In this document: positions 47,514 to 55,504 of the stretch, in pieces
How positions within the stretch are numbered: position 1 is the first letter of the stretch
Layout of the letters: each line of letters opens with the position of its first letter
NCBI GenBank assembly: GCA_947258425.1
Contig: CAMYIG010000049.1
Location: 640-64,639 of the forward strand
Length of the DNA stretch: 64,000 bases
Direction of reading: 5' to 3'
Source: an uncultured Gammaproteobacteria bacterium
GTDB lineage: Bacteria; Pseudomonadota; Gammaproteobacteria; SZUA-140
Program-made: the position numbers and the translations under genes
Notes under the pieces: model-generated
The model's input: the letters and a program-made list of their open reading frames with translations, nothing else
The model's database searches: none
What the model was told of the DNA's origin: nothing

Positions 47514-48422
47514 ATGACAATGCAAAAACAAATTTTGAAAAACAATTACCGTTCAACCATCGCTCGCAAGCTTTTCACTACGAAAATACTCTGGTTGTGT
47601 TCACTCTTTATGGTAAGTCTTTTCAATGTGTCAGCGGCCACCGCTATCACTAGCATCACGCCCATTGCTAACCCCTCTGATGATGCCCGTGAGGCGATGT
47701 CGACTGGAAATGTGGATCTTTTGAGCCGTAACCTCCCCATTAGTTTTGATGATAACGGTAATGGAGATCAACGCATTGGGCTACGTTTTGCGGTCAATAT
47801 CCCCAGCAATAGAACTATCACCAGAGCCTATATACAGTTTACAGCCGATAAGGCCTCAAGCGGCTCATCAAACCTCTACATAAATGCTGAATACCGCAAC
47901 GATGCAGCACCCTTTGCCAGCAATGCCCTGGATATCTCATCACGACCCCTGACGCCTTCAACGATTAATTGGACACCCCACTCCTGGAATACCGTGGGTC
48001 ACAACGGCTTTTCCGAACGCACCCCCGACCTCAGCGCGCTGATACAGGAAGTCATCAATTTAGAAAACTGGCAGGCGAATAATCATATTGCATTTATCAT
48101 CTATGGCAGTGGCACACGCACCGCAAAATCTTATGATGGTACGCTCGCCAGTTACGGTTCTACTGCACTCGCGCCTCAGCTACACATTGAATACAGTGAA
48201 AATAGCGCGCCCGAACCTGCGCCAACCCCCGTTGACCACCTCCCCGTCGCCAATGCGGATACGCTGACCACCGCCGAAGACACAACGGCCACCCTTAACG
48301 TACTCAGCAACGACACCGGCCTCGAAGACGGACTTACACCCCGGCCAGTGGCTTTTCAGGCACGGATACTTTTCAATACCACATCACTGATGCCGATGGG
48401 GATACCAGCAGCGCAGGGGTAA
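47514..48422 (+). CDS. Upstream fragment of modular secreted repeat protein A1 (signal peptide + module copy 1 + truncated cadherin-like repeat); same gene as 48431..50734
   Basis: Signal peptide (...LWLCSLFMVSLFNVSAATA). It carries the ~180-aa module (IGLRFAVNIPSN...AYIQFTADKASSG...WNTVGH...ERTPDLSALIQEVI...LAPQLHIEY). The frame is lost at 48332, where 70 nt present in the paralogous repeat (49429-49498) are missing. Confidence 0.7.
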   Translation: MTMQKQILKNNYRSTIARKLFTTKILWLCSLFMVSLFNVSAATAITSITPIANPSDDAREAMSTGNVDLLSRNLPISFDDNGNGDQRIGLRFAVNIPSNRTITRAYIQFTADKASSGSSNLYINAEYRNDAAPFASNALDISSRPLTPSTINWTPHSWNTVGHNGFSERTPDLSALIQEVINLENWQANNHIAFIIYGSGTRTAKSYDGTLASYGSTALAPQLHIEYSENSAPEPAPTPVDHLPVANADTLTTAEDTTATLNVLSNDTGLEDGLTPRPVAFQARILFNTTSLMPMGIPAAQG

Positions 48423-48430
48423 GTGTCACC

Positions 48431-52418: not shown

Positions 52419-52768
52419 ACAGAACACTCACAGGTGAGAGCTTTAATACGCCGCTAAACTGCGGCAATGTTATCTATCAAATAAATTCTCTATCTATCTA
52501 ATAAATGAAGACTATTTAGATATGAACCTTACTTTCAAATATTTAGTTGTTTGTATAGTATGATGCTTGTTTGTACAATACTCGCCACATTGAATTTCAA
52601 TATTTAATGCAAGTAGCACTTTCACAGAATACACAGCAGTTAGCGCAAATACACATGAATTTTACAGGGTACATGTGGCATAATTCTTGATTGATATTTT
52701 AAGCATAAAGTGAAATAACAACCTGTTTCAATTTTGATCACAGAAGTCGTTTATAGAGCCATCATCCT

Positions 52769-55504
52769 TTGACCATAAAAAAATTAACTGCTAGCAGCAC
52801 ACACGCCTCAGCATCAGTCATTAAGCTACCTGGGGTATTCACCCTAATCCTATCTCTTTTAGTAGCGGGCTGTGGTAGTGCTGGTAATGACACGTCCGCT
52901 ACGGATAGTGATGCAGCAGCAAACACTTCGAGCAGCACTCAATCTACCGTTAACAACGTATCAGCAATCATCACGCCGATTGTTGGCTCTGCCAATGATG
53001 CTGAGGAAGAGGCCGCTACAGGTTCAATCGATGCCGCTAGTAGTGACCTCGAACTCATCTACGAACCCGGTGGCTCAGGAGAACAGCGCGTTGGTTTGCG
53101 CTTCAGTCTGGATATCCCTAAAAATAGCATTGTCACGCGGGCTTACATTCAATTCACCAGCGATGAAGTGTCAACTGGTGAAAGCAGTCTGACTATCCGT
53201 GCCGAATACAGTGCGAATGCGGCATCTTTTTCTACAAATAATTTCGATATTTCATCTCGCCCTGTCACCACTGCATCAGTCGACTGGACACCACCCGAGT
53301 GGAATACCACAGGGGAAAGTGGAATTGACCAGCGCACCCCTGATATCAGCACCCTCGCCCAGAAAGTAGTAGATCTCTCTGACTGGCAAGCCAATAATTA
53401 CATCGCATTTATCATTACTGGTACGGGTACTCGCACGTCGGTATCCCATGACGGTTCACCTGTGTTTGCACCAAAACTGTACATTGAATACGCAGTCAAT
53501 GAACCCGAACCTGAGCCTATTCCGCCATCACCAGAGCCTGTGACTCCACCGCCTGCACCCGTCGATCATTTCCCCATAGCAGAGAATGACACCCTGAGCA
53601 CTTCAGAAAACACGGCTGTCTCTTTCAACCTGCTCAGCAATGATCATGGTCTTGAAGATGGTGGCATTGTGATCACTCTAAGCAGTGCACCGGCCAATGG
53701 CAGCACATCCCTTGCTCAAAATGGCACGGTGACATACAGCCCCAATGGTGGCTATGCAGGCAGTGATCAGTTCACCTATCGCGTCACAGATGCCGATGGC
53801 GATTCAAGCAGTGCCATTGTTAATGTAACCATTGACGCGATTAATTATTTGCCCATCGCTCACGACGATAGTATCGAAATTAACGCGGGGTCATCAGTCA
53901 CGGTGAATGTCCTCACCAATGACACAGGACTCGAAGACGGCGGTATCACTGTCACACTCGACAACACACCAACTAACGGTAGCGTTCAGATTGACCAGAA
54001 CGGCACAATTACCTACACCCCCAACAGTGGCTATGTCGGCAGTGACTCCCTTACATACCGCATCACAGACAGTGATGGGGATAGCAGTAGCGCTAACTTC
54101 AATCTCATTATTCATCCACTTATCAGCCAACAACCCGCCAGTGATGATGCCGAAGAGACAATGTCAACCGGCAGAATGGATCTTGCAAGCAGCAATCTCG
54201 AACTTACACTACACACCAATGGCACGGGTGGCCAGCGTGTGGGGCTGCGTTTTAAACTAGACGTCCCCAGTAATAGCATTATTACCAATGCCTATATCCA
54301 GTTTACAACCAGCCAGACCTCGTCTGGAGTAAGCAACCTGTTTATCTTCGCTGAGAAAAGCACCAATGCAGCAGCTTTTGCAAGTAATGACCTGAATCTT
54401 TTTCGCCGTCCCGCCTCAGATATAACGATTAACTGGATGCCGCCTGACTGGAATACGATCGGTCAGAAGGAGATTAGCCAACGTACGCCAGATTTAAGTG
54501 CGCTCATTCAGGAAATCATTACATTAGACAACTGGCAGGCCAGCAACCATATCGCTTTTACCATATACGGCAGTGGCACTCGAATAGCGTACTCACTTGA
54601 CAGCTCACTATTAAATCTAGGCACCACTGAACTAGCGCCACAGCTTTATGTTGAATATGCCCCAGCTGATGCAACGTCACCGCTGCCAGCCCCCACTAAC
54701 ACGTTTCCAATCGCGCATCTGGATAGTCTCACGACGATAAAAAATACGCCGGTAAGCATCAACGTACTAAGTAATGATGAAGGACTCTCAGATGCACCCA
54801 TTAACGTCACCATCAGCACCCCCGCCCCAAATGGGCGTGTTGTTATTGGCCAAAATGGCAACCTCACCTACACACCAGATAGTGATTATTTAGGGACAGA
54901 TACCTTCACTTACACCATCACAGACGCCAATAGCGACGCCGATTCTGCAAGTGTCAACGTCTCAATTAATGACTCCAATCATTTACCCGTTGCCAATGCT
55001 GATAACGTCACAACGCAAACCAGCACACCGGTGACGATTGCTGTACTTGATAATGACACGGGTATAGAAGACAGCCCAATCACTATGGCCATTTCAACGC
55101 ACCCCATCAATGGAAGCGTGACCATTGAACCAGACAATACGATCACCTACACCTCGAATGCAGATTACTTCGGGCCTGATAGTTTCGGTTACACCATTAC
55201 AGACATAGACAACGACAGCGCCGCTGCCAACGTACAGATTACCGTCACATGCACCTCTGGGATTTGCTCAAAGACCATTAGAGCCACATGGGATGCGAAT
55301 GCAGAACCGAACATCAGTGGATACTACCTCCATCATGGTACACAATCAGGTACATACACAGATAAAATCTGGGTGGGTGATATGACATCATATGATTTTA
55401 TTACCTCCGAATTGACAGACCACTTCTTCGCAGTTTCAGCGGTGAATACGTCAAGCGATGAGTCCGATCTATCCGCCGAAGCATCGATATCACTAGCGCC
55501 ATGA
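52769..55504 (+). CDS. Lipoprotein paralog A2: two copies of the ~180-aa module, four cadherin/VCBS-like repeats, C-terminal FN3-like domain
   Basis: TTG start with the lipobox LLVAGCGS. Modules lie at about 52994-53525 and 54140-54680. The C-terminus reads CTSGICSKTIRATWDANAEP..., paralogous to A1. Confidence 0.75.
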   Translation: MTIKKLTASSTHASASVIKLPGVFTLILSLLVAGCGSAGNDTSATDSDAAANTSSSTQSTVNNVSAIITPIVGSANDAEEEAATGSIDAASSDLELIYEPGGSGEQRVGLRFSLDIPKNSIVTRAYIQFTSDEVSTGESSLTIRAEYSANAASFSTNNFDISSRPVTTASVDWTPPEWNTTGESGIDQRTPDISTLAQKVVDLSDWQANNYIAFIITGTGTRTSVSHDGSPVFAPKLYIEYAVNEPEPEPIPPSPEPVTPPPAPVDHFPIAENDTLSTSENTAVSFNLLSNDHGLEDGGIVITLSSAPANGSTSLAQNGTVTYSPNGGYAGSDQFTYRVTDADGDSSSAIVNVTIDAINYLPIAHDDSIEINAGSSVTVNVLTNDTGLEDGGITVTLDNTPTNGSVQIDQNGTITYTPNSGYVGSDSLTYRITDSDGDSSSANFNLIIHPLISQQPASDDAEETMSTGRMDLASSNLELTLHTNGTGGQRVGLRFKLDVPSNSIITNAYIQFTTSQTSSGVSNLFIFAEKSTNAAAFASNDLNLFRRPASDITINWMPPDWNTIGQKEISQRTPDLSALIQEIITLDNWQASNHIAFTIYGSGTRIAYSLDSSLLNLGTTELAPQLYVEYAPADATSPLPAPTNTFPIAHLDSLTTIKNTPVSINVLSNDEGLSDAPINVTISTPAPNGRVVIGQNGNLTYTPDSDYLGTDTFTYTITDANSDADSASVNVSINDSNHLPVANADNVTTQTSTPVTIAVLDNDTGIEDSPITMAISTHPINGSVTIEPDNTITYTSNADYFGPDSFGYTITDIDNDSAAANVQITVTCTSGICSKTIRATWDANAEPNISGYYLHHGTQSGTYTDKIWVGDMTSYDFITSELTDHFFAVSAVNTSSDESDLSAEASISLAP

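Follow-up and report, generated by a model that had tools for sequence, protein, structure and literature searches.

A repeated beta-sandwich module of CBM96/DNRLRE type in the surface proteins of an uncultured gammaproteobacterium, with a predicted role in binding extracellular polymer

A stretch of 64,000 nucleotides from an uncultured member of the Gammaproteobacteria (contig CAMYIG010000049.1 of assembly GCA_947258425.1; the whole stretch is called the window here) carries two genes for repeat-rich proteins (A1 and A2). Behind each of them comes a gene (B1 and B2) whose product is a secreted right-handed beta-helix protein. Set between the immunoglobulin-like (Ig-like) repeats of A1 and A2 are five copies of a conserved module of ~170 residues. 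From a structural model we assign the module with confidence to the beta-sandwich fold of CBM96/DNRLRE type, CBM denoting a carbohydrate-binding module. The module family is a large sister branch of the DNRLRE/CBM96 domain that has no family model, and the fold is also used by TGF-beta propeptides; what is new here is new at the level of family models only, since fold and superfamily were already known. We consider it rather likely that the module is an autonomous beta-sandwich serving in the multivalent, non-catalytic binding of an extracellular polymer.

A hidden Markov model (HMM) of the module was used to scan the six-frame translation of the whole window. Five copies were found and none elsewhere (independent E-values, i-E, of 7e-61 to 6e-68). 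A preliminary description of this DNA, made from the letters and their open reading frames (ORFs), had proposed five copies of a conserved module, and the HMM coordinates fell within a few codons of those proposed. Each of the five stretches is free of stop codons in one frame only. The copies are as follows.

47664..48203, + strand: module copy 1, CBM96/DNRLRE-like beta-sandwich (HMM i-E 2.1e-66, profile positions 1-173; alignment)
48473..48994, + strand: module copy 2 (HMM i-E 7.2e-66; alignment)
49631..50155, + strand: module copy 3, the copy used for modelling (HMM scan)
52988..53497, + strand: module copy 4 (HMM i-E 5.6e-68; alignment)
54137..54664, + strand: module copy 5 (HMM i-E 7e-61; alignment)

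Aligned over 180 columns, of which 58 are invariant, the copies were 52-73% identical to copy 1, and column identity averaged 71%. The motif strings given in the preliminary description (DDAEE..G, QR[VI]GLRF, AYIQFT, W.P..WNT.G, RTPD, WQA, G[ST]GTR and AP[QK]L[HY][VI]E[YF]) were essentially right, the exceptions being DDARE in copy 1 and QKVV in copy 4. By type, copies 1, 2 and 5 form one group and copies 3 and 4 another, and both groups are mixed across A1 and A2. The module profile was matched by unrelated database proteins down to E 3e-62 and, at E ≤ 1e-3, by 17,951 cluster representatives; the repeats are therefore far beyond chance.

The structure of copy 3 was modelled with AlphaFold2 (AF2) without templates, at a mean predicted local distance difference test score (pLDDT) of 92.7 and a predicted template-modelling score of 0.89. 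In the model, a beta-sandwich is accompanied by two short helices and by a long, ordered loop (residues 76-99). Its structural matches, with score and, where given, aligned residues and identity, ranked as follows.

8WAB_B, a "DNRLRE domain-containing protein", the chondroitin-sulfate-binding CBM of a chondroitinase: 13.0, 150, 15%
7VBO_A, alginate-binding CBM96: 11.4, 145, 16%
TGF-beta-family prodomains: 7.7-8.3
Ordinary CBMs (CBM32/35/6 etc.): 6.5 or less

The two best matches are thus experimentally characterised CBMs, both of them polysaccharide binders, and the model superposes on these two solved members of the CBM96/DNRLRE group. Foldseek gave the same ranking (7VBO, E 1e-5; 8WAB, template-modelling (TM) score 0.58-0.60; pro-BMP9, E 5.5e-4). 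Since the nearest neighbour of CBM96 itself is also pro-BMP9 (PMC9971899), the module falls squarely within the CBM96 fold group. Generic jelly-roll CBMs (CBM6/32/35) and LamG were neither the closest structural neighbours of the module nor its Pfam match. The earlier suggestion of a jelly-roll fold of carbohydrate-binding type was therefore borne out by the model.

A link to CBM96 was also found in sequence. One protein (L052, 6975-10331) from a metagenome-assembled genome (MAG) carries a pilin-like hydrophobic N-terminus, a CBM96/Disaggr_repeat domain, a module and a Laminin_G_3 domain. The CBM96 domain of this protein is Pfam-positive (E 1.7e-13, with a match to Disaggr_repeat as well) and the module follows it directly, so that the two domain types can be read side by side. 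They share the order of their motifs: EDAEI in the CBM96 domain corresponds to DDAEE in the module, R-S-L-L-R-F-N-V-D-A-I-P-A-G-V-K-I-I-D-A-T-L to L-V-G-I-R-F-V-N-L-D-I-P-P-G-A-T-I-S-N-A-Y-L, A-V-T-W to A-V-N-W, L-V-Q-G-W-V to I-I-Q-E-I-V, and H-P-S-L-D-V-T-Y to A-A-T-L-H-I-E-Y.

A CBM96 mini-profile was built from about five domain segments of four Pfam-positive proteins (L052, L038, P0393, P0394) and run against a local database of 6,731 proteins and ORFs. At E ≤ 1 its only matches were to modules (155 instances), with a best i-E of 2.3e-6 over profile positions 12-184 of 187, and the next iteration took in the whole module family. An alignment of the same CBM96 proteins (A6) matched 8WAB in the PDB at E 8.5e-5. 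In direct comparisons by hhalign, the module matched CBM96 at E 8.5e-3 with a single CBM96 sequence, at E 4.3e-4 with four, and at E 8.8e-5 with five including 8WAB (probability 60%, 119 colinear columns, residues 33-173). The CBM96 profile used here was shallow, with an effective number of sequences of ~2.6, and a homology search from a true CBM96 domain gave two proteins only. Sequence profile searches of the PDB with the five-copy alignment and with a 61-sequence alignment (the five copies plus 56 trimmed homologs) returned noise only. Taken alone, the sequence support for homology to CBM96 is modest, and it becomes convincing only in combination with the match of the predicted fold. The module had been called undescribed; this stands in so far as it has no family model, and fails for a new kind of domain, given that a CBM96 profile finds the module and that hhalign aligns the two. 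The preliminary description had named a known-CBM profile match covering the module as the finding that would overturn it, and roughly such a match was obtained, via purpose-built profiles and structure only.

Features common to the module and to CBM96/DNRLRE (Pfam PF24517, NCBIfam NF033679; structures 7VBO, the alginate-binding TM6-N4 of Dp0100, and 8WAB, the chondroitin-sulfate-binding module) are an N-terminal strand containing Asp, the pattern x-R-F-x-x-x-I-P-x-G-A-x-I-x-x-A-x-[LI]-x-[LF], a V-x-W motif, a helix with Q-x-x-[VI] and a final A/P-P-x-L-x-[VI]-x-Y strand. Both are accessory domains, often repeated, of secreted proteins. The two also differ. The P-x-x-N-Y-G motif, which in the form D-x-x-[ILV]…P-x-x-N-Y-G is shared without exception by the CBM96 domains gathered here, is missing from the module, which keeps the Asp (in DDAEE) and one Gly. 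Conversely, the well-ordered loop of ~25 residues (76-99) in the module has no CBM96 counterpart in the hhalign alignment. Partners differ as well, the module being joined mostly to Ig-like repeats and metallophosphoesterases and not to polysaccharide lyases. A much weaker structural match was seen to the TGF-beta propeptide arm domain (PF00688; 4YCG/4YCI, 5HLY), which has no sequence signal to the module, has a eukaryotic latency function and never occurs as a multi-copy surface repeat.

Across 787 non-identical instances the near-invariant signature of the module reads DDAEE, G, SSDLEL, Q.VG.RF, IP, AY.QF..DE, F, SSR..T, W.P..W, Q.TP, QE, W, N, G.G.R.A and AP.LH.EY. About 37 columns were at least 85% conserved in this set, many of them polar and aromatic. 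Fifteen columns were at least 60% acidic and four at least 60% basic, and the N-terminal strands read DDAEE and SSDLEL; net charge was negative in 98% of instances, with a mean of -12.8. Net acidity was considered as a discriminator from CBM96 and rejected, the genuine CBM96 domain of L052 having a charge of -11. In each of the five window copies profile column 35, within Q-R-[VI]-G-L-R-F, is Arg, whereas the wider family mostly has T, V, L or I there and Arg in under 4% of the 787 instances; in the hhalign alignment the CBM96 residue at this column is the first Arg of R-x-L-L-R-F.

To measure the extent of the family, 1.84 billion cluster representatives (clusters at 50% identity) were searched exhaustively with HMMER. 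In addition to the 17,951 members at E ≤ 1e-3, this gave 12,788 at E ≤ 1e-10 and 5,617 at E ≤ 1e-30. The module is typically present in several copies set between Ig-like repeats, and the top matches were proteins of 680-5,856 aa with 3-8 copies each. At least 570 module stretches were confirmed in contigs sampled at one genome per species. Hosts among the matches listed include Gammaproteobacteria and Alphaproteobacteria (with Sinorhizobium/Ensifer), Saprospiraceae/Lewinellaceae, Flavobacteriaceae, Nitrospirota, Ca. Electronema, Geobacter, Planctomycetota, Chloroflexota, Acidimicrobiia, Cyanobacteria, Kiritimatiellae, Bacillota and others; the nearest relatives among these matches (59-61%) come from an uncultured gammaproteobacterial MAG. 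Tandem module genes, with one or two modules plus cadherin/He_PIG repeats, occur on rhizobial replicons, namely plasmid pA of Sinorhizobium chiapasense (L007/L058, ~1.377-1.400 Mb) and Ensifer sesbaniae (L019).

Partner domains were surveyed with Pfam in two samples, one of 39 cluster representatives and the other of 41 ORFs taken from named genomes. The Ig-like partners were PKD/K319L-PKD, Big_9, cadherin-like, Big_7 and He_PIG, together with tails of the type IX secretion system. Metallophos was present in 10 of the 39 representatives and 16 of the 41 genome ORFs, and Pur_ac_phosph_N in 3 and 8, respectively. Occasional partners were phytase (one case), GSDH, CotH, subtilase, Beta_helix, CBM9, LamG and polysaccharide deacetylase (Polysacc_deac_1). 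Fusions of the module to calcineurin-like metallophosphoesterases or to the N-terminal domains of purple acid phosphatases were seen in L015, L049, L033, L063, L014 and many further cluster representatives (P-numbered), some of them compact enzymes of two to four domains; the minimal architectures were module-Metallophos (~510 aa) and PAP_N-Metallophos-PKD-module (~650 aa). A published description of such a module-metallophosphoesterase fusion was not found in the literature. Many thousands of large bacterial surface proteins carry the module and are annotated only as Ig-like repeats around unexplained gaps of ~170 residues. Placement of the module with CBM96/DNRLRE gives these gap-bearing proteins a testable function, polymer binding, and justifies a family model. 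Together with the size of the family, the recurrent fusion to metallophosphoesterases and purple acid phosphatases, unexpected and unexplained, is the main interest of these results.

In the function that we propose, the modules would act as non-catalytic ligand-binding units held off the cell envelope on Ig-like spacers, and two or three copies per chain would provide avidity for a repetitive extracellular polymer. The likeliest target would be an acidic exopolysaccharide, or an algal or host glycan of the kind used by beta-helix enzymes of polysaccharide lyase (PL) types PL6 and PL9. The A protein would serve the B enzyme, expressed alongside it, by tethering the cell or by gathering substrate. 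The predicted binding surface is the conserved face formed by DDAEE, SSDLEL, Q.VG.RF, SSR, W.P..W, QRTPD and AP.LH.EY. Since many conserved acidic residues lie on this predicted face, Ca2+-bridged binding of a polyanion would be plausible. The same fold has a neutral, flat predicted surface in a polyhydroxybutyrate (PHB) depolymerase, and the ligand therefore varies with surface chemistry (PMC12278694).

Several observations weigh against this proposal. The predicted conserved face was drawn from sequence and secondary structure only. CBM96 binds alginate via a surface groove, with an essential basic set of K10, K22, K25, K27, K31, R36 and Y159 in TM6-N4 (PMC9971899). This Lys-rich groove does not appear to be conserved in the module family; the conserved charged columns, 15 acidic against four basic, suggest that it is no family feature. 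Pfam and NCBIfam scans of the window proteins gave nothing on the modules at E ≤ 1, with PF24517 and NF033679 included, and a Pfam scan of the 61 aligned family members returned CBM96 once, at E 0.023, amid noise; the preliminary description, which could assign the module to no known Pfam family, is in agreement with both. The commonest enzymatic partner family-wide is a metallophosphoesterase and not a carbohydrate-active enzyme. In addition, none of 77 module loci in other genomes had a B-type beta-helix gene within 8 kb, and no module genes were found beside distant homologs of B, which occur without modules. A broader interpretation, which we put forward tentatively, takes the module as an unrecognised family, sister to CBM96 and comprising at least 12,000 clusters at 50% identity, whose ligands would form a separate class outside the uronate and sulfated polysaccharides of 7VBO and 8WAB and which would serve as a general anchor for extracellular phosphoesterases and giant adhesins across many bacterial phyla. 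Candidate ligands would then include particle surfaces and extracellular polymers that are phosphorylated or bridged by cations. If true, this would be a new CBM-like family and would show how secreted phosphatases are targeted.

The frequency of Metallophos as catalytic partner, with Pur_ac_phosph_N and the single phytase beside it and with minimal module-phosphoesterase enzymes in existence, also raises the explanation that the target is no glycan at all. The module would in that case bind a phosphorylated polymer (extracellular DNA, a teichoic-acid-like polymer or phosphoglycan, phytate salts) or a mineral- or metal-coated particle, tethering extracellular phosphoesterases and adhesins, and the window proteins would be particle or matrix adhesins instead of glycan binders. 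The strongly acidic module, with its conserved Asp/Glu clusters, would suit cation- or metal-mediated binding, and the DNRLRE fold has been reported on an enzyme for a non-carbohydrate polymer, the PHB depolymerase (PMC12278694). We nevertheless regard this explanation as unlikely: both closest structures bind polysaccharide, the partner gene in the window encodes a lyase- or hydrolase-like beta-helix and no phosphatase, and the CBM9, LamG, beta-helix, polysaccharide deacetylase and GSDH partners point to glycans. No signal of phosphate-scavenging genes was seen around the two module-Metallophos loci that were inspected.

A module without any external ligand, acting as a structural spacer or as a prodomain-like intramolecular chaperone or cap as in precursors of the TGF-beta family, is still less probable. 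The genuine CBM96 domain of L038 does match Pfam TGFb_propeptide (E 8.8e-7), and the module often adjoins enzyme domains. Yet the window proteins contain no enzyme domain to cap, the alternation of up to 8 copies per protein with Ig-like spacers is the pattern of a binding module, and some 37 highly conserved columns, polar and aromatic residues included, are more than a spacer needs. A fold or family that is new and has no relationship to domains described before would fit the failure of standard single-profile searches to give a Pfam, NCBIfam or PDB sequence match, but we give it hardly any credence, as it is contradicted by the Foldseek, mini-profile and hhalign matches to CBM96 and by the motif-by-motif colinearity of the two domain types in L052. 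Binding of an extracellular polymer, most probably a glycan among the targets weighed, is accordingly the reading we prefer for the window proteins.

The genes that carry the five modules, and their other parts, are as follows.

47514..50734, + strand: gene A1, in two ORFs, 47514-48422 (302 aa) and 48431-50734 (767 aa) (ORFs, Pfam/NCBIfam, jackhmmer repeats)
48228..48433, + strand: broken Big_9 repeat of A1, profile positions 1-35 in frame 1 and 58-92 in frame 3 (DNA alignment with intact repeats)
50480..50731, + strand: C-terminal 85-aa domain of A1, FN3-like in its sequence pattern (conserved in both A1 and A2)
52769..55504, + strand: gene A2, 911 aa (translation; Big_9 E 5.7e-72; tandem-95 189.9 bits against a cut-off of 90)
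53558-53833, 53837-54112, 54692-54967 and 54971-55246, + strand: Big_9 repeats of A2 (jackhmmer)
55250-55501, + strand: C-terminal 85-aa domain of A2, the equivalent of that of A1 (conserved between A1 and A2)

From the N-terminus, A1 consists of a signal peptide, module 1, the broken Big_9 repeat, module 2, two Big_9 repeats, module 3, one Big_9 repeat and the C-terminal domain. A2 has a lipoprotein signal (…LLVAGC), a Ser/Thr-rich linker, module 4, a Pro/Glu linker, two Big_9 repeats, module 5, two further Big_9 repeats and the C-terminal domain. The signal peptides of A1, A2, B1 and B2 and the lipobox of A2 were read by eye; A2 is probably lipid-anchored. Big_9, Cadherin_4/5 and the tandem-95 model scored above their cut-offs on the Ig-like spacers of both proteins (tandem-95 reaching 145 and 190 bits, its cut-off being 90). 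A1 and A2 thus belong, via these repeats, to the tandem-95/Big_9/cadherin-like repeat adhesins (NF012211, PF17963, PF17892, PF17803), whose models cover the spacers only and not the five modules between them. Pfam and NCBIfam scans found no catalytic domain in either protein. A CBM in the sense of CAZy, the database of carbohydrate-active enzymes, is appended to a carbohydrate-active catalytic module; in A1 and A2 it is not, and the lyase-like beta-helix is encoded by a separate adjacent gene. The C-terminal domain gave Pfam matches at noise level only (E ≤ 10), and its pattern in A1 and A2 is …I.W..N.EP.I.GYYL.HG.Q.G.Y.DKIWVG…HFFA.SAVN….

The preliminary description had treated A1 as one intact ORF. 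It is in fact split in two by a frameshift inside an Ig-like repeat, where 70 nt directly after 48331 are missing in comparison with the paralogous repeats. The DNA flanking this gap is almost identical to the repeat at 49325-49600, and the gap may therefore be an assembly error by repeat collapse and not a true pseudogene; the same near-identity suggests, as the alternative, a very recent deletion. Long non-coding stretches lie upstream of A1 (46556-47513, ~960 bp) and of A2 (52371-52768, ~400 bp, AT-rich), and a promoter/terminator scan gave no signal above shuffled sequences.

The two beta-helix genes follow the A genes closely, B1 starting 8 nt after A1 and B2 42 nt after A2.

50742..52370, + strand: gene B1, secreted right-handed beta-helix protein, 542 aa (72% identity to B2; weak N-terminal PelN/DUF1565 matches)
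55546..57138, + strand: gene B2, secreted right-handed beta-helix protein, 530 aa (AF2, Foldseek, PF22842, Chondroitinase_B E 8.6e-4)

The AF2 model of B2 (pLDDT 93.7) is a right-handed parallel beta-helix, and its precomputed Pfam family is PF22842, Pel9A-like_beta_helix. The best Foldseek matches (E 3e-6 to 1e-4) were lacto-N-biosidases of glycoside hydrolase (GH) family GH136, PL9 enzymes (Pel9A and rhamnogalacturonan lyase), and PL6 alginate lyases and chondroitinase B. Among them were 1RU4 (Pel9A) at E 3.5e-6, 5OLR at E 2.3e-5 and PL6 entries at E 3e-5 to 1e-4, with TM scores of 0.36-0.50. As judged from the B2 model, the B proteins thus have the fold of PL9/PL6-type right-handed beta-helix lyases; GH136 hydrolases and AlgE epimerases score similarly to the lyases.

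Together the genes form a two-gene cassette, a module/Ig-repeat protein plus a secreted beta-helix protein, that is tandemly duplicated (47514-52370 and 52769-57138). The window is part of a chromosome. Housekeeping genes occur to either side, with leuC, asd, FimV, folD and glnS lying upstream and thiolase and genes of leucine catabolism downstream, and related contigs from metagenomes (80-82% identity) preserve the gene order A2-B2-thiolase. A general linkage of module and B-type gene was dropped after the 77 loci described above. Because of those loci, and because B homologs occur without modules, the A-B pairing is a lineage-specific cassette, informative for the source organism and not for the function of the family. 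In this genome the pairing points to a duplicated unit, a binder together with a beta-helix enzyme, that would act on an extracellular polysaccharide. In disaggregatase-type proteins of Methanosarcina, a right-handed beta-helix enzyme is combined with Disaggr_repeat/DNRLRE repeats (PF06848) and acts on an extracellular matrix polymer. By Pfam names this is the same pairing of a beta-helix with DNRLRE-fold modules, and the genuine CBM96 domains of L052 and L038 also match Disaggr_repeat; here, in contrast, the parts are encoded by separate adjacent genes, the modules belong to another branch of the fold and no window protein matches PF06848.

A search of genome contigs with the B2 protein found no relative. 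Distant B2 homologs (~59% identity; L085-L087) were located inside exopolysaccharide-biosynthesis clusters that lack modules and contain four GT4 glycosyltransferases, two polysaccharide deacetylases, Wzy_C, UDP-glucose dehydrogenase and two further beta-helix paralogs. Directly upstream of these homologs is a conserved 162-aa gene without a Pfam family, and the same arrangement is present in L001.

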